NCBI GenBank assembly: GCA_964630205.1
Contig: CAZVTM010000002.1
Coordinates: 31,235 to 95,234, forward strand
Length of the DNA stretch: 64,000 bases
Direction: 5' to 3'
Origin: an uncultured Helicobacter sp.
Lineage (GTDB): Bacteria; Campylobacterota; Campylobacteria; Campylobacterales; UBA6016
Shown here: in pieces, positions 15,909 through 45,457 of the stretch
How positions within the stretch are numbered: position 1 is the stretch's first letter
Layout of the letters: the number at the start of each line of letters is the position of its first letter
The notes under the pieces: model-generated
Databases searched by the model: none
Told to the model about the DNA's origin: nothing
What the model saw: only the letters and a program-made list of their open reading frames with translations
Translations under genes and position numbers: made by a program

Positions 15909-17318
15909 ATGAACATACTACTTACAGGTGCAACGGGCTATATCGGCAGACGCCTAAAACATAGGCTTCTAAAAGAAAGCGACGTAAAATTGAGACTTTT
16001 TGTCAAAAAAGGGCAAAGCGTAAAAACCTCCGATACGGTAGAAATAGCTGAAGGTAGCACATTTGACCAAGAAAGCCTAGATAGCGCCCTAAAAAATATC
16101 GATACGGCATACTATCTCATCCACTCGATGGAGTCCAAAAACTACCGGGAACTAGACAAAAAAAGCGCGCAAAACTTCCTTGACTCCTGCATAAAAAACG
16201 GGGTAAAACGGATAATTTATTTGGGTGGACTCGGCGAAAAAGAGAGCGCAAGCGAACATTTACTTAGCAGGATAGAAACGGGAGAGATACTAAGTTCTCG
16301 TCCGGATGCCGTCCAGACGCTATGGTTTCGCGCGGGGGTCATCATAGGCTCAGGCTCCGCAAGTTTTGAGATAGTCCGCAACCTCGTTGAAAAGCTCCCT
16401 TTTATGATAACGCCGAAATGGGTAAATACCCTCTGTCAGCCGAGCGCAGAAGCAGACGTAATAGAGTATTTGGCAAATGCGTCAATACTGCAAAATAAAG
16501 AGAGTGCCATAATAGATATAGGCGGTGAGGCGATGAGTTACCGCGAGCTTTTGCTTGGATACGCTAGAGCCGTAGGGCTAAAAAGAGTCTTGATTCCCGT
16601 TCCTTTTTTCTCGCCGAAGCTCTCCTCGTATTGGCTTACCCTCATGACTCCCGTACCCTACTCCGTCGCATCGGCGCTTATCGAGGGGCTAAAAAGCGAA
16701 GCGGTAGTCAAAAACGATAACGCAAAAAAATATTTCCCCCACATCGTCCCGCTAGACTACGAAACCGCCGTCAAAAAAGCACTCGAAGACATCCAAAACT
16801 CTCAGATAATCAGCAGATGGTCGGATGCCTCAAAAGACGCATGGGAAAACGACCACTCCAAAATAGCGGAGGCGGTCTTTGTCGATAGGCAGAGTATCGA
16901 ACTGGGCGGCACCCCTCCGCAAAAAGTTTTTGAGACGATATCCGCCGTCGGGGGCGATAACGGGTGGTTCGGGTATGAAACCCTATGGCAAATCAGAGGG
17001 TTTATAGACAAGATAATCGGCGGATACGGCCTCTCCAGAGGGAGACGAGACCCGAAACATCTGAGGGTCGGGGATAGCGTAGACTTTTGGAAAGTGGTAG
17101 ATGTCAGGGAAAACGAGAGACTTTTGTTGTTTGCTCAGATGAAACTCCCCGGCAAAGCTTGGCTAGAGTGGACGATAAAAGACGGCAAACTCCACCAAAG
17201 CGCATATTTTTATCCGCACGGCCTCATGGGACGGCTATACTGGTACGCCATGGCACCGTTTCACCTGTTTATATTCGGCGGAATGGCAAAAAATATCATA
17301 AAAAAGGGTAAAAATTGA
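15909..17318 (+). CDS. NAD(P)-binding SDR-family protein with C-terminal DUF2867-like domain
   Basis: Start set at MNILLTGATGYIGRRL (Rossmann GxxGxxG). The track's longer start overlaps the divergent promoter region. TTGA overlap with pglA. Confidence 0.75.
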   Translation: MNILLTGATGYIGRRLKHRLLKESDVKLRLFVKKGQSVKTSDTVEIAEGSTFDQESLDSALKNIDTAYYLIHSMESKNYRELDKKSAQNFLDSCIKNGVKRIIYLGGLGEKESASEHLLSRIETGEILSSRPDAVQTLWFRAGVIIGSGSASFEIVRNLVEKLPFMITPKWVNTLCQPSAEADVIEYLANASILQNKESAIIDIGGEAMSYRELLLGYARAVGLKRVLIPVPFFSPKLSSYWLTLMTPVPYSVASALIEGLKSEAVVKNDNAKKYFPHIVPLDYETAVKKALEDIQNSQIISRWSDASKDAWENDHSKIAEAVFVDRQSIELGGTPPQKVFETISAVGGDNGWFGYETLWQIRGFIDKIIGGYGLSRGRRDPKHLRVGDSVDFWKVVDVRENERLLLFAQMKLPGKAWLEWTIKDGKLHQSAYFYPHGLMGRLYWYAMAPFHLFIFGGMAKNIIKKGKN

Positions 17319-18412
17319 AAATCGGCTTTCTCTCTCATCTGGATCTCAACCTGTATGCTTTTAGGCTCCCCGTCATATTGGAGTTAAAACGGCTAGGACA
17401 TACGCCGATAGCGATAGCGCCGGAGGGGGCTTATCTGCAAAAAATCAGAGAGACCGGAATAGAGTGCGTAACCTACGGTATAGAACGCAAAAGTCTAAAT
17501 CCCCTAAAAGAGATAAAAGCGATACAAAATATATATGAAGCGATAAAACCGCTAAATCTCGACATCCTTCACACGTTTACGGCAAAACCGAATATCTACG
17601 GAACGATAGCCGGACGGTTAGCCAAAGTGCCTCGTATCATAAATCTAGTAGAGGGGCTTGGGAGTTTTTATCTCGAAAACGACCTAAAAAGCAGAGTTGT
17701 CCGCACCCTCATAGAGCGGCTATACAAACAGATTTTCAGACTTTCAAACGCCGTAATGTTCGTAAACTCCGACGATCCGGAGTATATGAGCCGCAAAAAC
17801 ATTATAGACCCGAAAAAAATAGTCAAAATAAACGGTGTCGGGATAGACACAAAAGAGTGGAGCCGCAAAAAAGCCGCAAAGGAGCCGCTAACCGTCGTGA
17901 TGGTTGCCAGACTCATCAGGCACAAAGGGGTAATCGAATATTTACAGGCATCTCAAAATCTAAAAGAGAGATACGGGGATGTACGCTTTGTATATGTCGG
18001 CGGCGAGGATTTCGGCAACCATAGCGGACTGGGAAAAGAGATATTTGAAAACTACAAAGGGGTGGAGTATCTAGGCGAGAGGAGCGACATCAAAGAGCTG
18101 CTTGAAGATTCGCATATATTTGTACTCCCAAGCTACAGAGAGGGGCTGCCTAGAACCGCTTTGGAGGCTATGAGTATGGAGGTGGCGGTGGTCGGAGCCG
18201 ATGCGTGCGGGACTAGAGATGTCGTCCGAGACGGCAAAACAGGGCTTTTGGTTCCGGTAAAAGAGAGTCAGGCGCTTGAGGCGGCAATCGAAAAGCTGAT
18301 AACCGATGAAAAACTACGCAACAAACTGACAAAAACAGCCAGAGAGGTATGCGTAAAAGAGTACGACATAAAACCCATAGTAAAAGCACATTTGAGGGTT
18401 TACGGGATATAG
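17315..18412 (+). CDS. pglA: GT4 glycosyltransferase, PglA-like (first GalNAc transferase of N-glycan pathway)
   Basis: 365 aa, TTG start. It appears collinear with my recollection of C. jejuni PglA: MxIGFLSH..Y.FR.P, LVEGLGSFY, YLG.RSD..ELL....IFVLPSY.EG.P. Confidence 0.75.
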   Translation: MKIGFLSHLDLNLYAFRLPVILELKRLGHTPIAIAPEGAYLQKIRETGIECVTYGIERKSLNPLKEIKAIQNIYEAIKPLNLDILHTFTAKPNIYGTIAGRLAKVPRIINLVEGLGSFYLENDLKSRVVRTLIERLYKQIFRLSNAVMFVNSDDPEYMSRKNIIDPKKIVKINGVGIDTKEWSRKKAAKEPLTVVMVARLIRHKGVIEYLQASQNLKERYGDVRFVYVGGEDFGNHSGLGKEIFENYKGVEYLGERSDIKELLEDSHIFVLPSYREGLPRTALEAMSMEVAVVGADACGTRDVVRDGKTGLLVPVKESQALEAAIEKLITDEKLRNKLTKTAREVCVKEYDIKPIVKAHLRVYGI

Positions 18413-18688
18413 CAGCTTTTGAAAGCACGATATAACGCATCCCAAAAAGCGCATGATGCCTCTTTATCTCTTGCAAATCTGAGTTTTACCCATGCCTGCG
18501 ACAGCGCCGCATTTAAAAACAAAAATATTAAAAAGCTTATAATAAGATTATAATTATGCAAAAAAAGAATCACTTATTTTTTACACAATTTTATGCAATT
18601 GTAAGTGTGCGCCATATATAATGGTCGATCTCTGGTTATAGATAAAATAACTTGAGATATATTTATAAAGAACAAAAGGAGTCAGTGA

Positions 18689-19360
18689 ATGCTAAAGAAA
18701 GTTATTTTGGCCGGATTACTTGTAGTAAGCGGTGCCAATGCCGGAATGTTTGATTCTGTTGTCTCTGCTGTGGGGGGGGGTTCGACAGCAAAAGCTGTTG
18801 ACGGCAACGCCCTAGACTCTGTTATACAAAACTACTTTACGGCAAAAGCCCTATTACAAAAATCTTCAGAAGCCCTAAGCAAAGCTATACTTTCAAAAGA
18901 AGAATCCGGAAAATTCGAATCGGCACTCAAAGCGGCTGAATCCATCTCAGATCCAAAAGAAAAAGATGCAGCCATCAGCAAAGCCGTAAGCGATGTTCAA
19001 ACAGCCCTAAAAGCTGCTATAGAGTCCAAGCAAATTATAGAGCAAGTTAAAAAAGCCGATAAAAAAACAAGAGAACAGCTCGTCGTCGGCGGATTCAATT
19101 TTATACTGTCTGGACTCAAGTATAAAGATACTCTAACTAGTGCAAAAGATATGGTGTCTTCATTGTCGTCAAACCCTACCGCCGCAATGCAGTATACATC
19201 ACAACTCGGACAACTAAAAGATATGGTCGCAACACTTCCGGAAAACATAACATTGATAGCCACAATCGGAAGTAAATTGGTAGATTTGTACAAAGCCGGA
19301 AAAGTAAACTTTACAGCCCCTACAAGCAGCTCGCAAGCCCCAAAAGAAAGCAGTAAATAA
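18689..19360 (+). CDS. Secreted helical protein, putatively phase-variable (G9 tract)
   Basis: AAGGAG RBS and signal peptide MLKKVILAGLLVVSGANA. A G9 run at codons 28-31 is in frame as sequenced. No family recognised. Confidence 0.75.
   Translation: MLKKVILAGLLVVSGANAGMFDSVVSAVGGGSTAKAVDGNALDSVIQNYFTAKALLQKSSEALSKAILSKEESGKFESALKAAESISDPKEKDAAISKAVSDVQTALKAAIESKQIIEQVKKADKKTREQLVVGGFNFILSGLKYKDTLTSAKDMVSSLSSNPTAAMQYTSQLGQLKDMVATLPENITLIATIGSKLVDLYKAGKVNFTAPTSSSQAPKESSK
18772..18780 (+). repeat. Poly-G (G9) homopolymeric tract inside a CDS
   Basis: Direct read: tg-ggggggggg-ttc. G8 or G10 gives stop codons within about 15 codons. Confidence 0.9.
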
Positions 19361-19381
19361 CAAACTATAGATTTCCCTTTT

Positions 19382-19405
19382 CTGCCTTTTTGTGAAAAAA
19401 GGCAG
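19382..19405 (+). terminator. Hairpin after the first cassette gene (possible attenuating terminator)
   Basis: CTGCCTTTTT-gtga-AAAAAGGCAG forms a 10-bp perfect stem 20 nt after the stop. No clean 3' U-run, so strength is uncertain. Confidence 0.35.
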
Positions 19406-19438
19406 GAGAGCACACATCAAACAAATCAAGAGGTAAAG

Positions 19439-20867
19439 ATGAACTTTAAAAGCGTTGTAGCCGCTACGACTCTACTAGCCTCCATAGCCATTCCCCCAAC
19501 AACTACTTGCATTAAAAGCCACAGGTGAGGGTTCCGTAGCCATAGCTTCAAGCGACCCGCAAACAGTAAAAAGCACAGCCGAACGAAAGGCAATGGCCGA
19601 TGCAGTAATATCGGCAATCAAAAAGCTCCAAGGCTCAATAAACGTACCGCCGGAAGATCCCAGAATACTTCAGTTAATTAAGCAAAGAGATTCATTTTTA
19701 AAAAGCGAACCTAAGATTGAGAGAGATAAATCCGATTCCGCCCTTTATGCGGTAAAAATAACGCTTGATATTGACGATACGGCTTTTGTTGAAGAACTCG
19801 GAAATGTTCGGCTCGGAGCTTTAAACAATAAAACGGAAAATCTTGGGAGTATAGTTGTTTTTATAGACGAAGCGGTAAAAAGAGATATGCTAAATGCAAG
19901 CGAAGTTCCGCTTGAAGAGAGGATAGACTACAAAAGAGACAATAGCAAAAGCTACAAAGAGAACACATCAAAAAGTTCGGCTTCATATAGTGCATCAAGT
20001 ATGAGCATAAAAGATAAAAGTTCGGCTTCATATAGCGATAAAAGCTCAGCTTCAGGAAGGGCAAGCTCGGAGGCATCATACGACGATAAATATGCCGCCA
20101 GAGCCTCATCGCAAGCCGCAGTATCCGGAAACGGCGTAGGCGCATACGGCAGAGACGATGCCGCAGTTGCCGCAAGCTCAAAAGGCTCCGCAAAACAATC
20201 GGCTAGTTATGCCGCTAGTAGCGAATCGAAAGGGGCATATAGCAAGGATTTTCAAGCATCGGCGTCGAGTGCGTCTAGCAAAAGCTCAGCTTCTTCAAGA
20301 AACGTAAATAGCCAAGTTAACGATAAAGAGGAGTACCACTACTCAAAAACCATCAATACCGAAGTTTTAAAACCGCAAAGTTCACTAAACGACGCTATGA
20401 AAAATGAACTTGAATCGGCACTCGGAAAATTCGGCGTAACTTTTGAAGATGGAAGCGGAATGTTGGCCGACTTCAATAAAGTATCAAAGAAAAAATATGC
20501 TTCATACAATGAAGCCATGAGAAATGATGGCGATAATTTTAAAAATTTTATCCGCAAAAAAAGACCTAGTGCAAGCTATATAGGTATTGGAACTCTTGAG
20601 ATAGGCTACAATCCATCCAAGGACTCTACCGGTGATTTTAGATGCGGATTGAATGCGGGAACGATTAGTATCATCCCGCTAAAAACAAATGCGAAACTTC
20701 CTGGCGGCTCACTCAAAACCATCAAGAAAAGCGACTCCACATCTGAAGGTTGTATGAATAATATCAGGATTGATTCGGCTACGGAACTGGGAGCAAAAAT
20801 AGGTTCTTTGATTCAAAAAAATGCCAAGGACAAAGATTTGAAGGCAAAACAGGAGATGTTTGATTGA
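19439..20867 (+). pseudogene. Secreted LPP20/FlgP-like protein with Ser/Ala-rich linker; signal-peptide exon out of frame
   Basis: AGAGG RBS plus the ATG at 19439 encodes MNFKSVVAATTLLASIA..., then hits TGA at 19526. The 424-aa body (track ORF from 19593) is open from 19488 in the +1 frame. Loss of one base, for example in the C5 run 19493-19497, joins them. The mature N-terminus ATGEGS...AERKAMADAV..LQG resembles the LPP20/FlgP family (weak). Confidence 0.6.
19971..20035 (+). repeat. Exact 20-nt direct repeat 45 nt apart within the Ser-rich coding region
   Basis: AAAAGTTCGGCTTCATATAG occurs at 19971-19990 and 20016-20035, encoding KSSASYS twice. Further degenerate SSAS units follow. Confidence 0.8.
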
Positions 20868-22897
20868 CGACAATAAGTCTACACAAAAAAATAAGCTCCG
20901 TATTGGCGACACTACTTGCGTCTGCCGTATCCGCCGTTGCCGGAGATTCTTTTGCTATCTGAGCACCGAAAATGGTAATAACCGAGGATAGTATCGAAAA
21001 AAACCAAGCATTTCACTACTCCAAAGGGGCAAATAGCCAGAATATCCTAGAGGCTTTTAATACGGCAATAAGGAAATATTATCCGGATATAAAAACAGAG
21101 CTTGATAAAAAAAATGTAAAAAATAGTTTTGCCGTTTATCTGAAAGTCTCAAGAGCCTCAATATACGAAGAGCAGTTGCCTAACTCATCGGTAAAAAGCT
21201 ACACTCTACCTGTAACTGCCAGTATAAACTTTATCAATATGGCAAACGGCGATATTATCTACTCCCACTCATACACAAATATTGTTCAGGGAAATTTGGC
21301 CGCATCCGGAGACGAAAAAATAAAAAAACTAGCCGAATGGTATACAACTGGATATTCATCGCTATTTGAACACCTAGCAAAAGAAGCTAGTCAAAAATTT
21401 AAGCCACATAAACTATCTACAAAAGTCATTGGAAAATACGACGGCCTATTGATACTTGATAAAGGGCTAGACGGTGGCATAGCCAAAGGTGATACGCTAG
21501 ACAGGGAAAACGGAAGCGTAGAAGTCTTATATTCCGCAAACGGATACTCCATAGGTCAGGATGAATTCCCAAAGTATCCAAGTCAAGATGGTGATATTCT
21601 CGTAAAAACATACAACGGCTCTTTGGACGGTGTAAAAAAACCAAGAGTTACGCTGCTGGATATATCAACCGATAAGCAAATCGGGGATTTGCCGCCGGAA
21701 CAAATGCTTTACGATGTTTTTTCGGACAAAATAGCACAACAAAGCAGTTTTACCGTCACTTCGATCGGCAAAGATTTTTATGCTGCCAAACGAGACATTA
21801 TTTCAAAGTCAGGTGTAAGAGTACTGGAGGGCAAAAGATCAGTACCAGATTATTATATCAGACTCTCGTATGACGGCCCATTTTACTACTCAGCTCCGAC
21901 GAATCTCGACTATGCAGAACAAAGGCATTATTATGCCGGAGCATGCGGCGAACTTGTGGACATAAGCGGCAGAGTATTTCACAGCGACTGTGCATTTGAC
22001 AATATCTCCGATGAGATTGTCCACGGCAAGGGACTCTCCAAAAGCTCAAGATATGAGACGGTAATGAAAAATGCGACGTTATCATTGGCGGAGTCTTTCT
22101 CAAAAGGAGTTTCGTTTGATAAAGTCTCATACAAAATCACAAATCTAAAAGCCTCAAAAATAGAGTTTGAAGATGAAAAAAACCTATTGGCCCCCGGCGC
22201 ATCTATCACAATATATAAAAATATCGGTTCGGTGGGCGACAAAAAAGACGTTTTAATCCCCATTCAGGAAGCAACCATAGATGAGAAAAAAGAAGGTACT
22301 GCGATTGCAACCTTGGATTCCATCAAAATAACTCCGAAGCTAAACGTAGAGAAAGGTGATTTTATAGTCGAAGATATAGTGTCCGCAAACACTCCGTCAG
22401 ACGCAAAGCTATTTAGTTTTTGCGCAAAATCAGGGAAAATGGATATCGGCACTATTGACGGGTATGACTCTGTGACTAGATATTTAGTAAAAAAAACTTT
22501 TAAACAATTACTATATGACGGGCAAGGGCTAACGGAGGCTATACGAAAAAATATAGATGAAGCGAAATTTGAGCACACGCCGAAAGTTACGACCCCCTCC
22601 ACAAAATACTGCGTTCAGCCCCTATACTGGCTTGAGCCTAAAGGCAAAAAACAGTCTGAACATATCGGCTTTGAAACCGCATTATTTGACATAACATCTG
22701 GCTTCAGGATTTATGAAACAAATGAAATCAAAAACAAAACACCGAAAGATGCCGCCTTTGTATCCAAAAAATCATTCGAAACAAATCTTGCACTCGAAAT
22801 CCCAATAAAAAGTTCGAAAGAGTACCTCAGGATAGAGCTTTTGAAAAATTCATTGCCTAGCTTTAGCTCGTCAGTATCATCCATTCAAACACCGTAA
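20864..22897 (+). pseudogene. Large secreted protein gene interrupted by an in-frame TGA directly after its signal peptide (downstream ORF 20972..22897 intact)
   Basis: AGGAG is 8 nt upstream of the TTG at 20864 (TTGA overlap with the previous stop). It encodes MTTISLHKKISSVLATLLASAVSAVAGDSFAI, then TGA at 20960-20962, then APK-MVITEDS... in the same frame. The ATG at 20972 has only a weak RBS. Confidence 0.6.
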
Positions 22898-22909
22898 GGA
22901 TTAGAGTAA

Positions 22910-23329
22910 ATGAAAAAAGTCGCAATGCTACTTTGTATTACCGGATTGCTTTTCGGAGAGTCGTCAAGCCATGCAGAATCTAGTTCTTCCTCTTTTAGCT
23001 CCTCCTCTTCGCAAAGTTTCTCTAAAACTATCACCGACGACAAGGTAAGCTCAAATACAAAAAAATATGTTGAATCTTCAAACGGCAACGAAGTGTTATT
23101 TTCACTTGGAAAAAACACACAAACACTATCCGGCTCCCTATTTGTCAAACAAGGCAATATAAGTTGCGAATTTACCGATAAAGAATTGACAAAAAACGGA
23201 AGCACATATGTGTTTAAAGACCGTGACAGCGGATGTATTTTTACGATAAAAAATAACTCTAAATCAATTTCCGTAGACTACACAAAAACCAAGTGTATTA
23301 ACGCCGGATACTGTAAAATAAGGCAATAA
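22910..23329 (+). CDS. Secreted Ser-rich small protein
   Basis: 139 aa with signal peptide MKKVAMLLCITGLLFG, followed by SSSHAESSSSSFSSSSSQS. Confidence 0.7.
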   Translation: MKKVAMLLCITGLLFGESSSHAESSSSSFSSSSSQSFSKTITDDKVSSNTKKYVESSNGNEVLFSLGKNTQTLSGSLFVKQGNISCEFTDKELTKNGSTYVFKDRDSGCIFTIKNNSKSISVDYTKTKCINAGYCKIRQ

Positions 23330-23331
23330 CG

Positions 23332-23559
23332 ATGAATAATAATCAGCAATCAACACTGTTAGGCATTATCGCATTTTTGTGTTTTGTCAATTTATTAATA
23401 GGAGCCTATCTCCTAAAAAATACATTTGACAAGAACGAGCAAGACGTAACTCCAAACGTAAGCACCGAAAAAAACTACGATGAACTAAATGAAAAGCTTG
23501 ATAAGTTTTTTGAAAAACAAAATCAAGATATGCAAAAACTTTTTGAAGGAAATAAATGA
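23332..23559 (+). CDS. Small single-pass membrane protein
   Basis: 75 aa with one TM (LLGIIAFLCFVNLLIGAYLL). Tightly packed between its neighbours, with a 4-nt overlap downstream. Confidence 0.55.
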   Translation: MNNNQQSTLLGIIAFLCFVNLLIGAYLLKNTFDKNEQDVTPNVSTEKNYDELNEKLDKFFEKQNQDMQKLFEGNK

Positions 23560-23939
23560 AAATTGGATTATCTCTGGCGACACTTGTTTTGTCGATATTA
23601 TTTGCAGGGTGTGCCTCTTATCAAACGCATACACACGTTGGTGGACAAACCGAAAAACCAAGTATATCCGGAATAGAAAACAAAAACGGTTCTCTGACGC
23701 TTACTCTAAAAGGAAGTTCATATTATGGAAATCTTGTATTTGATGCAAAAAAGAGATTTGAATTACACCCTATGATTGCAAATATCACAGGTAATGCAAA
23801 AGGGCATTTGGTGTCAAAAACAGGCAAAACAATCACCTGCGTGATGGAACTAATGGAAGAGACAAAAAGCGGCACAGGATATTGCTTAGAAGAGGACAAT
23901 CCTCAAATTTTAAAATTTAGTGTAATTAATATGGACTAA
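23556..23939 (+). CDS. Lipoprotein
   Basis: 127 aa with a lipobox (LSILFAGC) after a hydrophobic leader. Confidence 0.7.
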   Translation: MKIGLSLATLVLSILFAGCASYQTHTHVGGQTEKPSISGIENKNGSLTLTLKGSSYYGNLVFDAKKRFELHPMIANITGNAKGHLVSKTGKTITCVMELMEETKSGTGYCLEEDNPQILKFSVINMD

Positions 23940-24016: not shown

Positions 24017-26116
24017 ATGCGAAAAATAGTGCAATACGATAAAAAAACGGCCATATTATTTGCCATAGCTTTTTTGATCAGTTTTTTTGCCCGTATGTAT
24101 TGGGTGGATTACGCTTCAAACGTCGAAGAGTACAAATTTAACAATCAGGTTATGATCAATACGAACGACGGCTACTTCTATGCCGAAGGGGCAAGAGATC
24201 TTATCAAAGGCTCTCACGAGGCAGGAGATAGAAGCGCCGTCACAGAACCGGTGGCTATAGCTACCGCCGCTCTATACAAAATCCTCCCTTTTTCAATAGA
24301 AACGCTAATGCTATATATGCCGGCTGTACTGGGCTCACTAGTCGTAATCCCCGTTATTTTGATAGGTAGATTTTTTGGCCAGCCTATGATGGGCTTTTTT
24401 GCGGCGATGTTTGGCGCAATTACCCACAGCTACTACAACCGCACAATGGCGGGATACTATGATAGCGATATGTTCGCCCTTGTCGTGCCCCCTTTTGCCG
24501 CTGCATTTCTCATCGGCTACTTCAAAGAAAAAAGAATTTTGTGGCAAGCGCTGTTTTTGGCCTCTCTCGCCCTCTCAAAAATACTTTACCCGCAGTCTTT
24601 TGCGTGGATGGCGGCGACGGTCGGTTTTGCGTTTTTGTATACGCTAGTTTTTGATAGAAAAAACAAAGAGATATACCTAACTCTCATACTTGCGCTTATT
24701 GCTGTTTGCGACTTGCCTACGGCGGCAAAAGCAGTCATTATAACGGCTAGTTTGTACTTTCAGCCAAGATTGACGCTTGACTACAAATCGTTAATTGCTT
24801 TTGCAATAGCGGCACTGGCCGTATTTGCATATTTTGGGGGTCTGACTCCGGTAATCGGGTCGTTAAACGCATACCTTTTCAAAGACAGCCTAACGGTAAC
24901 AAGTACGCTCAAATACTATGACGTAGTGCAGACGGTACAGGAAGCAGGCAAGATGGACCCAAACCTGTTTGCCTCCCGAATATCAGGCTCAATGCCTATC
25001 TTTATCGCCGCAATTATCGGTTATGGACTTTTTATCAAAAAAGAGAAGCTTTTTGCCCTGACCCTTCCTATTTTCGGGCTTGGGCTTTTTGCTTATTTTA
25101 GCGGCCTTAGATTTACTGTTTATGCTGTTCCATTCGCCGCTCTCGGGCTTTTTTATCTGATTTTTTGGGGACTCAAAAATCTTGACGAACGGGCAAAAAT
25201 AGCGGTTGCCTCACTCTCATTTCTCATAGCCTCTATACCAAACTTCTACCATATCTACGACTACAAAGTCGACACGGTATTTCCAAGCGGGATAGTCAAG
25301 CAGATTTCAGAGCTTGGCAAAAAAGCGTCAAGAGAGGATTATGTTTTTACATGGTGGGATTACGGCTATCCGGTTAGATATTACGCCGATGTCAAAAACC
25401 ACTCCGACGGCGGCAAACACGACGGAGCAACTAACTTTATAGAGTCTTTTATTATCTGCTCGACTAGTCAAAATGCGGCGGCAAACATGATGAGAGAGTC
25501 CGTAGAGGCTTACGAGGAGCTAATAAAGCAAGGTAAAGAGCAAAAAACGGCAACACTAGAGTATATGCTCGCCAAAAACGGCTTCAAAAACGAAGATTAT
25601 CAGCAATATCTATCGGCGCTAGCCTCAAATACTCATAAAAAAAGTGTAAAAACGAGAGATGTCTATCTATTTTTGCCATACGAAATGTTTGGAATACTCC
25701 CAACCATAAAGCTATTTTCAAATGTTGATTTGAATACCGGAGCTGAAGTCTCAAGTCCGTCTTTTTTGATGTTCAACCACTATAACGAAACTGAAGATAG
25801 CATAGATTTCGGCGGTGCAGTTTTTGACAAAAAAACAAAAACCATAAAATTCGGCGAAAAAACAATACACCTCAAAAGCGTAAGCATCTCCTATTACGAC
25901 AAAAACGGCACACTCGCAACCAAAACCGACAGCGGCTCCAGCACCGGAGAGCTACACCTCATATCGCTTCCGACATACGGCGCATACATACTAGCGGATG
26001 ATGAGATGTTTAACTCGCTATTCATACAAATGTTTGTCTTTGAAAATTACGACAGGAATCTATTTGAAAAAGTCTCAAGCACATATGAGGCAAAAATCTT
26101 TAGGCTCAAAATCTGA
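24017..26116 (+). CDS. pglB: Oligosaccharyltransferase PglB (STT3 family)
   Basis: 699 aa with a polytopic N-terminal half and the catalytic WWDYGY motif ([13 protein letters not shown]). Followed by pglC and pglD. Confidence 0.95.
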
Positions 26117-26118
26117 CG

Positions 26119-26727
26119 ATGTACAAAGCGGTATTCAAAAGGGTGTTTGATTTTTTGCTAGCGCTTTTTTTGTGCACGATTTTTCTGCCGATTTTTGCGG
26201 TCACTTTTTTTGTTGTTAGAGCCAAGCTAGGCTCTCCCGTCTTTTTCACCCAAGAACGCCCGGGGATAGGCGGTAAGATATTTAAAATTTATAAATTCCG
26301 TACAATGACAAACGAGCGAGACGAAAGCGGCGAGCTACTTCCAGACGAAGCAAGGCTAAAAGGGGTCGGCAAGACGATAAGACGGCTAAGCCTAGACGAG
26401 CTACCGCAACTACTCAATGTCCTAAAAGGGGAGATGAGCTTCGTAGGGCCCCGCCCGCTTCTGCCCGAGTACCTCCCGCTATACAACGCTAGACAAGCCA
26501 CGAGGCACACCGTACTCCCAGGTATCACGGGTCTAGCGCAGGTGATGGGGCGAAATGCGATAAGCTGGGGCGAAAAACTGGAGTGGGATGCAAAATACGT
26601 CGAAAACATATCATTCAAACTAGACCTCCAAATCATCCTCTGGACGGTAAAAAAAGTCCTAAAAAGCGAGGGGGTCAGCAAAGATGGGATGGCGACGACC
26701 GATAAGTTTACTGGAAATAACGGTTGA
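26119..26727 (+). CDS. pglC: Undecaprenyl-phosphate diNAcBac-1-phosphate transferase PglC
   Basis: 202 aa, near-collinear with C. jejuni PglC (KRxFDFxLAL, KIYKFRTM, [22 protein letters not shown]). Confidence 0.93.
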
Positions 26728-27329
26728 AAAAGATATACATCTACGGAGCAAGCGGTCACGGCAAAGTGATAGCCGACATAGCGAGAGCTTGCGGTTATGA
26801 GATAGAGGGTTTCGTAGACGATGACCCCCTCAAAACCGAATTTTGCGGCTACCCCTGCATCAGAGGGGGGCAGATGGAGCAAACTATCGCCGTAGCTGTC
26901 GCCATAGGTGGAAACAAGGCCAGAAAAGCGGTATTTGAGAGGTTAAAATCAAACGGCTATAGCCTCCCCGCCCTCACCCATCCAACCGCCGTAGTATCTC
27001 CGTCCGCCTCGGTGGGTGAAGGCTCGGTCGTTATGCCCCTTTGCGTCATAAACGCCTACGCATCTATCGGGGTCGGCTGTATCATCAATAGCGGGGGCAT
27101 AGTTGAGCATGACTGCACAATCGGTGATTTTGTCCACATCTCCCCAAACGCCGCCCTTGCGGGGGGTGTCCATGTCGGCAATATGAGCCACATCGGCATC
27201 GGCGCAACCGTCATCCAACTCATAAAAATCGGCAAGGACTGCACTATCGGAGCCGGAGCCGCTGTAGTCTCCGACATTTCAGACGGTGCAACGGCTGTGG
27301 GCGTACCGGCTAAAGTCATCATCAAATAG
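26724..27329 (+). CDS. pglD: UDP-4-amino-sugar N-acetyltransferase PglD (NeuD/hexapeptide family)
   Basis: [12 protein letters not shown]-terminus, hexapeptide repeats, GVPAK C-terminus. 4-nt overlap with pglC. Confidence 0.9.
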
Positions 27330-27338
27330 AGGCCTGAT

Positions 27339-28344
27339 ATGAATAACTTGACGCAAAACGACAATCTATACCAAAGCGTCAAAAACATCCTCCAAACCGC
27401 AAGAGACAACGCCTACAGACAAGTCAACTTCATCATGGTTGAGGCGTATTGGAATAATCGTAGAGGAAGAACAAAACGGCAAAGACAGGGCGGAGTACGG
27501 CTCATATCTCATCAAAGAGCTTTCATCGAGGCTAACGAGCGAGTTTGGCAAGGGGTTTACGGCTAGCAACTTGAAAATGATGAGGCAGTTTTATCTTGCT
27601 TTTCCAATTGGACACACACTGTGTGACCAATTGAGCTGGAGCCATTATCGCCTTATTATGAGGCTAGACAATCCACAAGCCAGACTTTGGTATATGGAAG
27701 AATCCGCCAAAGCAAACTGGAGCGTACGGGCGCTAGAGCGGCAAATCGGAACATTTTATTACGAGCGGATAATATCGAGCAAAGATAAACAACCCGTAAT
27801 AGCGGAAGCGACAAGCAATACCAAAGACCTACAACTCACCCCAAAAGACATCATCAAAGACCCTTATGTGTTGGAGTTTTTGGATCTCAAGCAAAACAAT
27901 GCTTTTTATGAAAGCGACTTAGAATCCGCCCTTATCGAAAAAATACAGGAATTTTTGCTGGAACTTGGGCGTGGGTTTGCTTTTGTAGCGAGGCAAAAGA
28001 GGGTCAAGACCGAGGCGAGCGATTTTTATATTGACCTAGTTTTTTACAACTACATCCTCAAATGCTTCGTCCTCATAGACCTCAAAAGCGGCAAACTAAC
28101 CCATCAAGATGTCGGTCAGATGGATATGTATGTGCGGATGTACAACGATATGGAAAAAGCCGAAAACGACAATCCGACGATAGGTATCATACTCTGCACC
28201 GACAAAGACAACACCGTCGTCAAATACTCTGTTTTGAATGAAAACGAAAATTTGTTTGTCTCGAAGTATCAGCTGTATTTGCCGACGGAAGAGGAACTAA
28301 AAAGAGAGATTGAGAGGGATGTTTTGGAGCTTGGGCGGCGGTAG
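27339..28344 (+). pseudogene. DUF1016/YhcG-type PD-(D/E)xK nuclease gene, frameshifted
   Basis: The N-terminal 35 aa (..ARDNAYRQVNFIMVEAYW) and the body (IGIIVEEEQNGKDRAEYGSYLIKELSSRL..GKGF..NL..MRQFY) are in different frames. The break is at about 27447-27460, where TATTGG and ATTGGA share nucleotides. The C-terminus has the D..ExK-like core (IDLVFYN..VLIDLK). Confidence 0.7.
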
Positions 28345-28489
28345 TTTTGTGTGGAAAAAAGTAGTCTGCCCTCGTCTTTTGTATAAGATCGAAATTGCCA
28401 CCGCTCGGTGCCGGAATAAAAAGTATCAAAGACGCTTTAAAAAGTGATTTATCGACTATAGACTTCGATAAACAGACAAAGGACTAATT

Positions 28490-28762
28490 ATGCTAAGAGA
28501 TAAAAATGGACAATACCTAAAGGAAGGGGATTATATTTGTATATGCGATAAGTATTTGGTGCAAATTCATGAATTTCCAAGCGTAGGCATGGGATTTAAT
28601 GTAAAAGATATTTGTGGAGGCTGCCCTACTATCGACCCCGGTTGCCTCAAGGCAAACCATAGAAATATTGGTAATACTCAAGGACAAATACCATTAAGCT
28701 TTTTAGATTTGACAAAGATTGAAAAATGCACAAAAGAAGAAAGGCTAGAACTTTGTATTTGA
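28490..28762 (+). CDS. Hypothetical Cys-rich small protein
   Basis: 90-aa ORF inside the low-GC insert. No recognisable motif, and coding status is unverified. Confidence 0.35.
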   Translation: MLRDKNGQYLKEGDYICICDKYLVQIHEFPSVGMGFNVKDICGGCPTIDPGCLKANHRNIGNTQGQIPLSFLDLTKIEKCTKEERLELCI

Positions 28763-28770
28763 CGGAAAAT

Positions 28771-28778
28771 GGGGGGGG
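28771..28778 (+). repeat. Intergenic poly-G (G8) tract
   Basis: Direct read: aaaat-gggggggg-ttagg, 9 nt after the stop of the 28490 ORF and 120 nt upstream of the 28898 ORF. Confidence 0.9.
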
Positions 28779-28897
28779 TTAGGTATATTCAATCTTCACT
28801 TTTCCCTCACTTTCGCCCTCTCGAACGGGAGCGCATATAGCACACGGTCTATGCAAAATAACACCGGCTTTATCTGAACATCTGTTATAATCACAAA

Positions 28898-29131
28898 ATG
28901 AACGAAAAAGACCAAATCGATAAGCTTTCAAAAATCGCCGATATTGTCAACAAAAAGCTTATAGCTCTTTTGGCGATAGATGGCGGGGTTGGGGCATATG
29001 CCGTGAAATTTATAGAGCAAAACAATGTTTTTGGTTATGCTCTCGGCATGATATTTATCGTAGTATCTATCGGCGTGGCTTATAACTACAATGAGTTAAA
29101 CAGACTCAAACAAGCGGTGGAGGAATTATAA
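28898..29131 (+). CDS. Small two-TM membrane protein
   Basis: 77 aa with two hydrophobic helices. Confidence 0.45.
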   Translation: MNEKDQIDKLSKIADIVNKKLIALLAIDGGVGAYAVKFIEQNNVFGYALGMIFIVVSIGVAYNYNELNRLKQAVEEL

Positions 29132-29132
29132 A

Positions 29133-29237
29133 ATGGAAGATATAGGACTTTTGGGCTTAGCTGTAGGTTTTGTGTTTGCTTGGATAGTAGGGTATATTGC
29201 CCACAAAAAACACTGGAAAATTGGAAATATTTTTTAA
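29133..29237 (+). CDS. 34-aa single-TM peptide (not in ORF track)
   Basis: GGAGG is 9 nt upstream of the ATG at 29133. Product: MEDIGLLGLAVGFVFAWIVGYIAHKKHWKIGNIF. Starts 1 nt after the previous stop. Confidence 0.35.
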   Translation: MEDIGLLGLAVGFVFAWIVGYIAHKKHWKIGNIF

Positions 29238-29326
29238 ACTCATACAGATGACATCCAATGGCACCGTAAGCCAATCCAAGCTAATTATCGAAAAAGGTGT
29301 GGGCTATTTTTTAAAGAAGCTTCAAA

Positions 29327-29638
29327 TCAATACCCCTGAATAATCAAATCCATAGCTTCAAAAATTTCAGCCCTATAGTCGCCAATATTTTGAATAGGCT
29401 TTGTCAACTCTTCAGCAGGATATGAAGCTAGTTCATCAAATAGTGCGATATATTTTTTGCCCTTTATTGTTATACCAAGATGTAGCGTTTTTACGGGGAA
29501 TTTTATCATTGAAGACGGTGTTAACGGAACTACGATTCTTGTGGCTAGTTTTTTAAGCGTATCAGACTGAATGTCTAGCAGATAAGGAAACTCTTTGTTT
29601 GTGGCTCTGTTTTTGTTGGCATAGACATCAAATTGCAT
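29327..29638 (-). CDS. ccdB: CcdB-family gyrase-poisoning toxin
   Basis: 103 aa with MQFDVY....... and LLDIQSD....L.TR.V.PL, collinear with F-plasmid CcdB (MQFKVY..LFVDVQSD..RRMVIPL). Confidence 0.85.
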   Translation of the reverse strand: MQFDVYANKNRATNKEFPYLLDIQSDTLKKLATRIVVPLTPSSMIKFPVKTLHLGITIKGKKYIALFDELASYPAEELTKPIQNIGDYRAEIFEAMDLIIQGY

Positions 29639-29639
29639 A

Positions 29640-29924
29640 CTAAAATCTTCTCACGCTATCACCAAAAACCCCTCTTTTTGCGACCCTCTCATTTTGTTCA
29701 TTTATCGCCTCGGCGTTTTCCTTTTCCCAAAGAGCCGCCTTTTGTTTTGCCAAAATCTCTTTTTCGATATTTTCAAGCTCTATTACTCTGTTTCTATGGA
29801 TTATAGTCAGCTCAAGCATCTCTTGTTCTTTTGGTTTTATATTGAGGTCTATCTTACCGTCTCTTTGAAGCATTTGCGCAATCGCATCGGACTTTAGATG
29901 CGTAAAAGTACTAAAAGACATCAT
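29640..29924 (-). CDS. ccdA: CcdA-family antitoxin
   Basis: Start set at the ATG at 29924 (GGAGATATAAA RBS). The C-terminal W.KEN.EAI...N..V...G.F.D..R.F matches CcdA. 1-nt gap to ccdB. Confidence 0.8.
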   Translation of the reverse strand: MMSFSTFTHLKSDAIAQMLQRDGKIDLNIKPKEQEMLELTIIHRNRVIELENIEKEILAKQKAALWEKENAEAINEQNERVAKRGVFGDSVRRF

Positions 29925-29938
29925 TTTATATCTCCAAC

Positions 29939-29968
29939 TATCGATACATTTATCGATGATATTATCGA
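29939..29968. promoter_or_regulatory. Three TATCGA(T) repeats at 12-bp spacing upstream of ccdA (putative CcdAB operator)
   Basis: TATCGATA at 29939, TATCGAT at 29951 and TATCGAC at 29963, immediately 5' of the ccdA start on the minus strand. Confidence 0.5.
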
Positions 29969-30048
29969 CAAAAAACTTAAAACACGCCACGCCGCCGCAT
30001 AACCCTAAAATCGCTATAATCACGCAAAAATTACGGCTAGGAAAACAG

Positions 30049-31176
30049 GTGAGCGAACGCATTTTCTTATCAGCCCCGCACATGGGCGGCAATGAACTTA
30101 AATACATACAAGAAGCTTTTGATGCAAACTATATAGCTCCGATAGGTGAGCAGATAACGAAATTTGAAGAGGCGATAAAGACTTATACGGGAGCGAAACA
30201 TGCCGTAGCTCTCTCTAGCGGTACGGCGGCGATACATCTAGCCCTTCGTACGCTTGGTATCAAAGACGGCGATGAGGTGCTGGCTTCATCATTTACCTTT
30301 ATAGGCGGTATCGCTCCTATCATGTATGAGAGATGTACGCCTTTTTTTATTGATTCGGATGAAGATAGTTGGAATATTGACCCATTACTACTCCTTGAGG
30401 CGTTAGAATCACGCAAAAAAAGCGGCAAAATGCCAAAAGCTCTCATCGTAGCCCACCTCTACGGTCAAGCGGCAAAGATGGATGAAATAACGGCGATATG
30501 CGACAAATACGGTGTCGCTATCATAGAAGACGCCGCAGAGTCGCTGGGTGCGACAATAAATGGAAAACACACGGGAACTATCGGCAAGGCAGGGATTTAT
30601 TCGTTTAACGGTAACAAAATCATCACCTCAAGCGGCGGCGGTATGCTTGTAACTGACGATGAGCAAATTGCCAAAGAGGCTAGATTTCTCTCCACGCAGG
30701 CGAAAGAGCCGTACTTGCACTACGAGCACGAGACATTCGGCTACAACTATCGCATGAGCAATATAGTGGCGGCGATAGGCAGAGGGCAGATGGAAGTATT
30801 GCCGCAGAGAGTCGAGAGACGCAGAGAGATTTTTGCCCTTTACCGTGAACTGCTCAAGGATATCCCTGAACTAAAATTTATGCCGGAAATCGCAGGAAGC
30901 CGTGGCAATAGATGGCTTACGACTTTTTATATGGACGCAAAGCTAAAAGCAACTCCAAACGACATCATAAAGGCGCTTGAAGAGCAAAATATCGAGTCAA
31001 GGCCGCTATGGAAACCGATGCATACACAGCCTGTGTTCAAAGATGCGCCGCATATCACAAACGGCTTTTCAGAGATGTTATTTGAAAGAGGTATATGCCT
31101 ACCGTCGGGCTCGTCGATGGATGATGAGGCGGTAATGCTGGTCGCCAAAATAGTGAAGGATGTAGTCCAAAAATGA
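30049..31176 (+). CDS. pglE: UDP-4-keto-6-deoxy-GlcNAc aminotransferase PglE (DegT family)
   Basis: Collinear with C. jejuni PglE from (V)SERIFLSAPHMGGNELKYI. GTG start at 30049 with AGGA upstream. The track's 5' extension overlaps the ccdA promoter. Confidence 0.9.
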   Translation: MSERIFLSAPHMGGNELKYIQEAFDANYIAPIGEQITKFEEAIKTYTGAKHAVALSSGTAAIHLALRTLGIKDGDEVLASSFTFIGGIAPIMYERCTPFFIDSDEDSWNIDPLLLLEALESRKKSGKMPKALIVAHLYGQAAKMDEITAICDKYGVAIIEDAAESLGATINGKHTGTIGKAGIYSFNGNKIITSSGGGMLVTDDEQIAKEARFLSTQAKEPYLHYEHETFGYNYRMSNIVAAIGRGQMEVLPQRVERRREIFALYRELLKDIPELKFMPEIAGSRGNRWLTTFYMDAKLKATPNDIIKALEEQNIESRPLWKPMHTQPVFKDAPHITNGFSEMLFERGICLPSGSSMDDEAVMLVAKIVKDVVQK

Positions 31177-32957
31177 ACCTTTTTACACCTACGCAGACGA
31201 AGCGGGCGCTGTTTTTTATAGTTGCCGATTTTGCATTGTCGCTTGCTAGCTTTTATGCGTCATATCTGCTCCGTTTTAACTTTGAGATACCGCCTCTGTT
31301 TATGGAGAATTTCTGCACGCTCTTTGCCCTGCTCGTCGCTCTCAAGATAGGCTCATTCGTGTTATTTCACGGTTACAAGACGCCGTGGAGATTTTTTGGT
31401 ATCCAAAACCTGCTAAATCTGGTCCGTGCCCATCTGCTAGCATACGCCGCTTTTGCGCTCATTTTTATCGTTTTTTCGGATACGCTAAACCCGTTTCCTC
31501 GCTCGGTGATATTTATAGATTTTGTCTTTTCGGTGTTTTTGCTAGGAGCGCTACGAATCTCAAAAAGGGTTTATATAGAGGCAAAAGCAGAGCGCAAAAA
31601 TCTATGCGTCATCATCGGGGCAACAAATGAAGGAAGCCTCATAGCCTCTCATCTCAAAAGCGGAAGCGGTGAATACTATCCTGTCGCATTCCTCGAAGAT
31701 GACAAACAAAAAATAGGCGGGATGATACACGGCTTTGCGGTACTCGGGCTAAAAGAGCTACAAAACTTTGCCGGCAAAAAAGAGATAAGCACGGCGCTCA
31801 TAGCAAAGCATTTTCACCCAAAAGAGCTTGAACGGCTGATGGATGAGCTAAAAAGCGTCGGAATCGAAAATGTCAAAAAAATATCTCTTTTTGAAAACCA
31901 CACCGACATCAAAGACATCTCAATCGAAGAGCTGCTGGCTCGTGAACCAAAAGACCTAGATACCGAGGCGGTTGCTAGATTTATCGCGGGCAAAAGCGTG
32001 CTCATCACGGGAGCCGGTGGCAGTATCGGTAGCGAAATCACGAGACAATGCGCAAAATTTGGCGCAAAAAAACTGATTTTGGTCGAAAACGGCGAATACA
32101 ACCTCTATAAAATCAGCGATGAGCTTTTCGCATACAACACGGTAAACAAACTCGTAAGCGTGGTGGACAAAGAGACGCTAAAAGGGGTTTTTGAAGAGCA
32201 TCGACCGCAGATAGTCATCCATGCCGCCGCCTACAAGCATGTGCCACTCGCTGAGGAAAACATCGAAGAGACGATAAAGAACAATATATTCGGCACCAAA
32301 AATACGGTGGAGCTCTCAGTTGAATACGGGGTAGAAAAATTTGTCCTCATCTCCACAGACAAGGCGGTGCGCCCTACAAATGTGATGGGGACAACAAAAA
32401 GAGTGTGCGAGCTAATCACCCAAAACATCAAACAAAAATACCCTAACGCAAAGACCGAGATAGCGGCGGTGAGGTTTGGCAATGTGATAGGCAGCTCCGG
32501 TTCTGTAATCCCGAAATTCAAAGAGCAGATAGCAAAAGGGGGGCCTATCACGGTCACACATCCTGACATCGAGAGATACTTTATGCTAATAGACGAGGCG
32601 TGCGCCCTCGTCCTTCAAGCGGCGGCGATAGCGAGGGGTAGCGAGATATTTATCCTTGACATGGGTGAGAGGGTCAGGATAGTCGATGTCGCCAAAAAGA
32701 TGATAGAACTAAGTGGCAAAGGGGATATAGAGATAGTCTTTACCGGACTCCGCCCCGGCGAGAAGCTAATAGAGGAACTTCTAACGGATGAGAGTGCCGC
32801 AAGCACGGAGTATCCCTCCATCACGGTGGCAAAAGAGAGCATATGCGACTACGCAAAACTAGAAAGCACATTAACAAAGCTATTAAACACAGACGATAAG
32901 CTCTCCATACTAAAAGAGCTTGTACCTGAATTTGACCATAAGCTAAACGGAAATTGA
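31173..32957 (+). CDS. pglF: UDP-GlcNAc C6 dehydratase PglF (CapD-like, membrane-anchored)
   Basis: 594 aa with N-terminal TMs, the Rossmann motif VLITGAGGSIGSE, the YKHVP active-site region and GNVIGSSGSVIP. Confidence 0.9.
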   Translation: MNLFTPTQTKRALFFIVADFALSLASFYASYLLRFNFEIPPLFMENFCTLFALLVALKIGSFVLFHGYKTPWRFFGIQNLLNLVRAHLLAYAAFALIFIVFSDTLNPFPRSVIFIDFVFSVFLLGALRISKRVYIEAKAERKNLCVIIGATNEGSLIASHLKSGSGEYYPVAFLEDDKQKIGGMIHGFAVLGLKELQNFAGKKEISTALIAKHFHPKELERLMDELKSVGIENVKKISLFENHTDIKDISIEELLAREPKDLDTEAVARFIAGKSVLITGAGGSIGSEITRQCAKFGAKKLILVENGEYNLYKISDELFAYNTVNKLVSVVDKETLKGVFEEHRPQIVIHAAAYKHVPLAEENIEETIKNNIFGTKNTVELSVEYGVEKFVLISTDKAVRPTNVMGTTKRVCELITQNIKQKYPNAKTEIAAVRFGNVIGSSGSVIPKFKEQIAKGGPITVTHPDIERYFMLIDEACALVLQAAAIARGSEIFILDMGERVRIVDVAKKMIELSGKGDIEIVFTGLRPGEKLIEELLTDESAASTEYPSITVAKESICDYAKLESTLTKLLNTDDKLSILKELVPEFDHKLNGN

Positions 32958-44316: not shown

Positions 44317-45051
44317 ATGGGACTTTACGATAGAGACTACGCTAGAAGCTCTCAAACGGATAACGGTCTTGAGAGAATCGATTATCAAACAAGAGAGGAA
44401 GAACAACCGCACGTCATAACGGACATCAATGCGTTTGTAAAGACTACCTACTCTTATTTTGCCGCATCGTTAATGGCCGGAACTGCCGGAGCATATGCGG
44501 GTATGCAAGCTGCGGCGACGATAAAAAGTTTTTATTGGCCTCTAGTAATTTTGGAAATTGCTCTTATTTTCGGTCTTCATTTTGTTAGAAATAAGCCGGG
44601 TATCAATACTGTTGTGCTTTTTGCATTTACGTTTATCAGCGGCCTTACGCTTACACCTCTTCTTAGCAATATTATGAATATGCCTGGCGGTGCAGGCATC
44701 ATAACAAATGCATTTTTGATGACATCTGTTGCGTTTGGCGCACTTACAATGTTTGCGATGAACACAAAAAAAGACTTTACGATGATGGGCAAAATGCTAT
44801 TTATAGGGCTAATCGTAATGATAGTGGGCGGTATAGTTAACATATTTCTAGGAAGCCCTATACTCCAGTTGCTTCTTGCTGGTGCAGGCGCTATGCTGTT
44901 TAGCTTTTTTATACTATACGATACGCAAAATATCATCCAAGGCGCTTATGATTCGCCTGTTAGCGCAGCGGCAAGCCTATATCTTGATTTTCTAAATCTT
45001 TTCGTATCTCTTCTACAAATACTAGGTATCTTTGGCGGCAAAGAAGAGTAA
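44317..45051 (+). CDS. Bax inhibitor-1/YccA family membrane protein
   Basis: 244 aa, 7 TM, with a C-terminal LYLDF.N.F...L motif. Confidence 0.8.
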   Translation: MGLYDRDYARSSQTDNGLERIDYQTREEEQPHVITDINAFVKTTYSYFAASLMAGTAGAYAGMQAAATIKSFYWPLVILEIALIFGLHFVRNKPGINTVVLFAFTFISGLTLTPLLSNIMNMPGGAGIITNAFLMTSVAFGALTMFAMNTKKDFTMMGKMLFIGLIVMIVGGIVNIFLGSPILQLLLAGAGAMLFSFFILYDTQNIIQGAYDSPVSAAASLYLDFLNLFVSLLQILGIFGGKEE

Positions 45052-45457
45052 CGGCGATTTGGCAAGCCTCTTACGGCTTGTCGACGCCAATTTAAATCGC
45101 CTAAAAGAAGGGGTGAGGGTCGTTGAGGACGTATGCAGATTTGTATATGAATTCAAAGATGAAGCCTCAAAACTTAAATCCATCAGACACTCAGCCAAAA
45201 CAACATATCTATTGGAAGCCCTATCGCATCGCGATATTATAGGCGATATCCTCAAAAAATCCACGGCAAGCGAAAAATCGAGAGAAGATATAAACTCATT
45301 GTTGATAGCCAACTTTAAACGAGCGGAAGAATCGGCTAGAGTGCTTGAAGAAACGCTGAAGCTTTTTAGCGAAGATGAAGCGGAAAAAAAAAAAAAAATT
45401 AGATATGAGCTTTACGACGTAGAAAAATCGCTCTTTACGAAGCTGCCGACCGCATAA
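45032..45457 (+). CDS. Small protein resembling the N-terminal extension domain of long ThiE proteins
   Basis: TTG start. The LVDANLNRLKEGVRVVEDVCRF pattern is recalled from ThiE N-terminal domains (unverified). Carries an A15 run near the 3' end. Confidence 0.45.
   Translation: MAAKKSNGDLASLLRLVDANLNRLKEGVRVVEDVCRFVYEFKDEASKLKSIRHSAKTTYLLEALSHRDIIGDILKKSTASEKSREDINSLLIANFKRAEESARVLEETLKLFSEDEAEKKKKIRYELYDVEKSLFTKLPTA
45384..45398 (+). repeat. Poly-A (A15) homopolymer inside a CDS
   Basis: Direct read: cgg-a15-tta, encoding EKKKKI. It lies 14 nt from the stop of the convergent methyltransferase gene. Confidence 0.9.

Follow-up and report, generated by a model that had tools for sequence, protein, structure and literature searches.

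A candidate poly-G phase-variation tract in the gene for a secreted protein of an uncultured Campylobacterales bacterium

Homopolymeric-tract phase variation is a textbook feature of Campylobacter and Helicobacter, and the usual explanation given for it there is adaptation to hosts and their immunity. The stretch of DNA analysed here (64 kb, hereafter the window) carries a run of nine G inside the reading frame of a 223-aa protein, p223, and raises the question of whether this run is a genuine on/off switch or an incidental homopolymer within a glycine-rich linker. The reading favoured here, with a probability of about 0.6, is that the G9 run is a slipped-strand homopolymeric-tract translational on/off switch of p223, of the Campylobacter/Helicobacter type, that is mostly held ON.

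The G9 tract, its gene, and its host

The window has a GC content of 43%, and its genes include those for a [NiFe] hydrogenase, for HypF and MetH, and for N-glycosylation (a pgl cluster). The closest named relatives of its IlvD belong to Sulfuricurvum, Sulfurimonas, and Thiomicrolovo (83–84% identity), and related sequences were sourced from wastewater and from a sulfidic cave biofilm (Frasassi). Judged by these sequence affinities, the host is an uncultured Campylobacterales MAG that is Sulfurimonadaceae-like and not Campylobacter. The first-pass annotation had started from a Campylobacter premise, which fails in view of the IlvD affinities, the GC content, and the presence of the [NiFe] hydrogenase with HypF. 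Its appeal to an established Campylobacter mechanism stands insofar as the class of mechanism is known there, but the argument is not directly transferable because the host is Sulfurimonadaceae-like. Hypervariable G:C tracts were reported in every characterised Campylobacter and Helicobacter genome, while Arcobacter butzleri, S. denitrificans, and W. succinogenes were reported to be without them (Miller et al., 2007; PMC2147049). The same source describes MutL and MutH as missing from the Epsilonproteobacteria as a class (PMC2147049), and a switch in the present organism would presume a lack of mismatch repair. For Sulfurimonas, Sulfuricurvum, and Sulfurovum, the literature searches turned up no description of such phase-variable tracts.

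The G9 observation itself is confirmed: the tract lies near the 5' end of the coding sequence for a protein with a putative signal peptide (Table 1). Codons 27–32 (GCT GTG GGG GGG GGT TCG) encode A-V-G-G-G-S, and the tract consists of the last base of GTG, both GGG codons, and the first two bases of GGT. It starts nine residues past the inferred signal-peptide cleavage site, which bears out the placement of the Gly-Gly-Gly shortly after the signal peptide, and at nine bases it keeps the 223-aa frame, so the window represents the ON state as had been claimed. In silico, a G8 rewrite leads to a stop at codon 42 and a G10 rewrite to a stop at codon 38, in agreement with the expected termination within about 15 codons. 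G7 and G11 rewrites also truncate p223, and G6, G9, and G12 yield the full-length protein. The frame is restorable in that a −1 or +1 change truncates p223 and a further ±1 change recovers it. The tract exceeds the working cut-off for homopolymeric G/C tracts of at least seven, which is the cut-off of PhasomeIt for G (PMC6321876), and it lies inside a reading frame. The ribosome-binding site of p223 is unchanged across three aligned relatives (L001, L011, and L024).

Table 1. Positions of the features discussed, numbered from the first base of the window.
Feature	Position	Strand	Remarks
GT4 glycosyltransferase gene	17315..18412		upstream flank of the cassette
A7/A6 indel	18560 region		intergenic, 5' of p223; A6 in one contig (L044)
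Ribosome-binding site AAGGAG	18676..18681	+	7 nt 5' of ATG
p223 ORF, 223 aa	18689..19360	+	ORF call
Inferred Sec signal peptide, residues 1–18, MLKKVILAGLLVVSGANA	18689..18742	+	read from sequence; cleavage after A-N-A
G9 homopolymeric tract, proposed slipped-strand switch	18772..18780	+	GGGGGGGGG; codons 28–31
G9/G8 indel	18772		p223 coding
p475, Ser/Ala-rich, with signal peptide	19439..20867	+	second cassette gene; orthologues 475 aa
C5/C4 indel	19493		window odd one out
p677	20864..22897	+	third cassette gene; orthologues 677 aa
pglB/pglC/pglD	24017..27329		downstream flank of the cassette
Poly-G tract G8, intergenic	28771..28778	+	between TTGACG and TATATT; 120 nt 5' of a 77-aa ORF (28898..29131)
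CcdB	29327..29638	-	island in the pgl cluster

By composition alone the run is only marginally unusual. Both strands of the window hold three overlapping G8-mer matches (the G9 tract counted twice, and the G8 tract at 28771), compared with a mean of 0.59 in dinucleotide shuffles, of which 6 in 100 reached at least three. No C runs of six or more and no G7 runs occur in the 64 kb. Only two G/C tracts of at least eight are present, and both are length-polymorphic among contigs. The codon choice within the p223 tract is unusual: GGG accounts for 19% of Gly codons and GTG for 18% of Val codons in the window, and the other nine Gly-Gly-Gly tripeptides of its long ORFs all lack consecutive GGG codons. 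Elsewhere in the window, an A15 run at 45384–45398 encodes a Lys run near the C-terminus of a ThiD2-family gene product (45032..45457, +) and far exceeds the poly-A cut-off of 10 for phase-variable tracts.

The N-terminus of p223, MLKKVILAGLLVVSGANA followed by GMFDS, resembles a Sec/SPase I signal peptide in its n/h/c layout and its A-x-A motif, and it is conserved among orthologues. The AlphaFold2 model (pLDDT 84, pTM 0.80) is a helical bundle spanning residues 39–203, and the tract falls within residues 22–33, a linker modelled at a pLDDT below 50. In this predicted disordered segment, the number of Gly residues is unlikely to matter much for folding; the Gly-Gly-Gly itself is kept across p223 homologues. 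The close family comprises 11 matches and the wider family 231 representatives at E ≤ 1e-3. No credible match to p223 was obtained in Pfam, NCBIfam, PHROGs, or PADLOC, and a Foldseek search of the PDB with the model found no fold neighbour and returned only designed helical bundles at E ≥ 0.1. Leptin matches in a PDB sequence profile search (E about 1e-3) were dismissed as spurious. The sequence contains no canonical D/E-x-N-x-S/T sequon for N-glycosylation. Promoter and terminator scans around p223 gave nothing beyond shuffle expectation, and an Rfam scan of the window detected no RNA elements. A perfect 10-bp inverted repeat (CTGCCTTTTT ... AAAAAGGCAG) with no T-run after it lies at 19383–19406 between p223 and p475, and may form an attenuator or mRNA-stability hairpin.

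The gene p223 is the first of a cassette ordered p223-p475-p677-p139-p127 (region 18689–23939), which is flanked by the GT4 glycosyltransferase gene on one side and pglB/pglC/pglD on the other. In the window, p475 and p677 are knocked out while p223 is ON, and in relatives they are intact. The gene p475 is frameshifted by a C5 run at 19493–19497, after the signal peptide, where C4 is read in all of the 30 further contigs that span the site, and p677 has a nonsense change (TGG to TGA at 20960–20962) just past its signal peptide, where L001, L011, and L024 have TGG. These lesions reflect either a strain that is losing the cassette or consensus errors in the MAG. Searches of Pfam, NCBIfam, PHROGs, and PADLOC gave no convincing match for the cassette proteins. 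In Foldseek, domains of the AlphaFold2 model of p677 (pLDDT 78) resemble FlgT (3w1e, E = 1e-10), HpaA, CsgG, LptE, and the Vibrio LPHT ring. Such folds are those of scaffold proteins and lipoproteins in the periplasm or outer membrane, and these model-based resemblances suggest, with low confidence, that the cassette may be an envelope-associated complex. The cassette is conserved in lineages with 62–67% identity, and in a more distant locus (L004) it adjoins the same pgl genes. Homologues of p223 and p641/677 are also neighbours in Burkholderiales, Gammaproteobacteria, and Myxococcota (loci L005, L006, L009, and L013–L018), which argues for a conserved two-gene module.

The pgl N-linked glycosylation cluster extends over 17315–18412 and 24017–32957 and encodes GT4, PglB/STT3, PglC, PglD, a PglE-like aminotransferase, and a PglF-like dehydratase. 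It is split by two insertions, namely the p223 cassette and an island that encodes a YhcG-like nuclease together with the toxin-antitoxin pair CcdA/CcdB.

Length variation at the p223 tract and at a second G tract

Because look-ups by protein identity favour ON alleles, the species was sampled again by way of the glycosyltransferase gene upstream of p223, a choice that introduces no bias towards either state of the tract. This neighbour-ascertained set comprises 34 contigs that reach the tract, from 34 different samples and all of the window's species, with tract lengths taken from assembly consensuses, one per sample. G9 (ON) was found in 33 of the 34 and G8 (OFF) in one (L055, the same contig as L011), and no assembly in the set had G10. 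Among relatives, the lengths recorded were G9 in 40 cases, G8 in L011/L055, and GTA followed by G8 in L025. The OFF contig L011 (ERZ650312 NODE_72, coverage 6.5) reads ...GGVRQQKLLTATP and then stops; it is otherwise near-identical to the G9 contig L001, which is ON like the window, and it has intact neighbour genes and no other lesion. In L025, also of the window's species, a synonymous G>A change (GTA GGG GGG GGT) shortens the tract and leaves it in frame.

Some protein records had to be set aside. The truncated records P0162 and P0172 (85 aa) were considered as OFF-state gene calls and rejected as contig-edge artefacts that do not extend to the tract. P0006, P0007, and P0009 come from contigs that are chimeric or diverge on the 3' side, and in these the tract is a normal G9.

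Three orthologue lineages are roughly equidistant, at 61–67% protein identity. In the lineage at 62%, known from the Frasassi PC08-66 biofilm, a MAG contig with coverage 1117 (L003) has G8 and is OFF, whereas a JGI assembly from the same sample (L023) has G9 and is ON. In the lineage at 67% (L002 and L012), the tract is interrupted by synonymous A's (GGA GGG GGA; GGAGGGGGA), and a homologue at 38% identity (L004) has GGA GGA GGA (GGAGGAGGA) and no tract. The G9 linker is thus found in two lineages that are about 38% diverged in protein sequence, with GTG as the preceding codon in one and ACG in the other, and residues have been gained or lost in the linker around the tract between lineages. 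Since synonymous sites are expected to be saturated at 61–67% identity, an all-G encoding that was kept or re-created argues for a molecular or selective driver. On the other hand, the interruption or absence of the tract in other lineages, together with the GTA plus G8 allele of L025, implies that the tract is dispensable. Synonymous interruption in orthologues, which the first-pass annotation would have counted against a switch, therefore does occur, in one of the three lineages and in one member of the species. The variation in length among strains that it anticipated is seen as G8/G9 differences in two lineages, but the overwhelming prevalence of G9 and the lack of G10 alleles in the sampled set speak for a tract that rarely departs from its modal length.

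In a multi-strain alignment of 35 sequences over about 4 kb, only three short indels occur between 16000 and 19900, and all are homopolymeric (Table 1). Among the 34 non-window contigs, the G tract is the sole coding indel of this region.

The second G tract, at 28771–28778, is intergenic and lies 5' of a 77-aa ORF that is conserved. Eight contigs gave lengths of G7 (L072), G8 (the window and L073, L076, and L078–L080), and G9 (L077), and the spacer between TTGACG and TATATT accordingly measures 18 nt in L072, 19 nt in the window, and 20 nt in L077. The tract may be a switch of the promoter-spacer type, with these hexamers as the putative promoter. A promoter consensus scan made no call here because of the 19-nt spacer; in Campylobacterota promoters the −35 element is often missing. 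Non-modal lengths were found in 2 of 8 contigs at this tract, which is free of any reading-frame constraint, versus 1 of 34 at the coding p223 tract, as would be predicted for an organism whose G tracts are unstable in general and in which selection keeps the coding tract ON. Both tracts together indicate, at the level of consensus sequences, that the length of poly-G tracts is unstable in this lineage and that p223 is OFF in some natural populations.

Alternative explanations and the proposed switch

The run could instead be an incidental homopolymer in a flexible Gly-Gly-Gly linker, with rare −1 slips as ordinary null alleles that are removed or that mark decaying genes. The near-uniform G9 consensus of the neighbour-ascertained set fits this explanation, as does the retention of Gly-Gly-Gly in lineages that interrupt or drop the tract. 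The tract's synonymous sites also appear unprotected within the species, where one of its three four-fold sites is polymorphic versus 22 of 100 elsewhere, a comparison without power that gives no signal of within-species selection for the tract. By a base-frequency estimate, a genome of about 2 Mb at 43% GC is expected to hold a few G9 runs, and the non-switch-like lesions of the window cassette (C4 to C5 and TGG to TGA) would fit sporadic gene loss. However, the recurrence of G9 at 62% protein identity, with different flanking codons and with synonymous sites expected to be saturated, is hard to reconcile with an incidental run. OFF alleles are present in both tract-bearing lineages, L011 has intact neighbours and no further lesion, and the window's other G tract likewise varies in length. 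On balance, an incidental run is considered rather unlikely.

The length differences could also be sequencing or assembly artefacts, with a true tract of G9 everywhere. The OFF contig L011 has a coverage of just 6.5×, and noise at low coverage could explain some of the differences; L003 and L023 disagree though they were assembled from one sample, and the window's unique C5 in place of C4 could itself be an error. The PC08-66 data, however, are Illumina HiSeq reads (PMC4288042) with Q30 trimming, and at 1117× a wrong G8 consensus is unlikely unless both alleles are abundant. Moreover, 33 independent assemblies made with several assemblers gave exactly G9, and thus the tract is not generally mis-assembled. 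Campylobacter poly-G tracts of such length are likewise reported to be accurate on Illumina (PMC6321876). Artefact as the general cause is therefore quite improbable. Programmed ribosomal frameshifting or transcriptional slippage was rejected as the primary reading because neither shifted frame codes beyond 7–12 codons and because G8 alleles exist at the DNA level.

The preferred reading remains a slipped-strand switch of p223. During replication, the G run would gain or lose one G through slipped-strand mispairing. G9, and also G6 or G12, would keep the frame; G8 or G10 would shift it 9–12 residues past the cleavage site and lead to termination within 7–12 codons, so that no mature p223 would be made. 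A later ±1 slip would bring the frame back. ON would be favoured in the sampled habitats, and G9 would consequently be the population consensus almost everywhere, with OFF variants arising continually and at times becoming the majority. A high switching rate and reversibility at the tract are presumed in this scheme, as are an adaptive benefit of switching and the envelope location and function of the cassette. The description of the locus as a classic phase-variation switch can accordingly be retained in part: truncation by ±1 G, natural OFF alleles, and a second variable tract agree with it, whereas the dominance of the ON state and the interrupted tract of one lineage do not.

Implications and comparison with known phase-variable systems

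If the p223 switch is real, natural OFF alleles in environmental relatives would suggest a greater age and a wider spread of the strategy within Campylobacterota. Evasion of phages or predators may be a driver in biofilms, and the repeated inactivation of the cassette is a hint that it forms a surface structure which is costly or a target. The finding also flags a conserved cassette (p223 with p677) that extends from Campylobacterota to Burkholderiales and Myxococcota. A wider proposal, possible but doubtful, is that free-living sulfur-/hydrogen-oxidising Campylobacterota carry a genuine phasome. Poly-G contingency tracts, usually regarded as a hallmark of host-associated Campylobacter and Helicobacter, would then be at work in environmental biofilm and wastewater populations too and would switch an envelope cassette next to the N-glycosylation genes, with phages or grazers as a plausible selective force, and contingency loci would predate host association in the phylum.

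Among known systems, the closest parallel is found in Campylobacter, in which 77% of poly-G/C tracts are intragenic and the modal length is G9 (PMC6321876). The p223 tract shares with the contingency genes of C. jejuni (cj1139c/wlaN with G8, cj0031 with G9, and capA with G11) a G tract that lies within the gene, on its coding strand and towards its 5' end, a modal length of G9, and truncation on ±1. It further shares an exported or envelope-related product (for p223, by its predicted signal peptide), length differences among natural relatives, and adjoining glycosylation genes. Unlike host-associated Campylobacter, the p223 host is free-living, hydrogenase-bearing, and Sulfuricurvum/Sulfurimonas-like, and comes from wastewater and sulfidic habitats. 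In addition, the known phase-variable genes include no homologue of p223, which belongs to no annotated family, and its tract is ON in 33 of 34 assemblies, whereas the classic C. jejuni loci are far more length-diverse between strains. The measured rates belong to C. jejuni, with 1e-4 to 4e-3 switches per division for G8–G11 tracts (PMC3401435), and the p223 tract is known from assembly consensuses.

In Helicobacter (H. pylori and H. canadensis), phase-variable genes with homopolymeric tracts act by translational frameshifting and are outer-membrane or surface-related (PMC2823697). These genes share with p223 the phylum and the mechanism of homopolymer frameshifting, but they belong to host-adapted pathogens, and each of those genomes has dozens of tracts, compared with the two tracts known here in 64 kb. 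The tract at 28771–28778 recalls the promoter-spacer homopolymer switches of Neisseria porA/opc in that its length sets the spacer, but here the promoter is putative, with hexamers read from the sequence and no call from the consensus scan. The class of mechanism is thus already well known, and what is new is the free-living host lineage and the target, a secreted protein that lacks annotation and is encoded in a conserved cassette.
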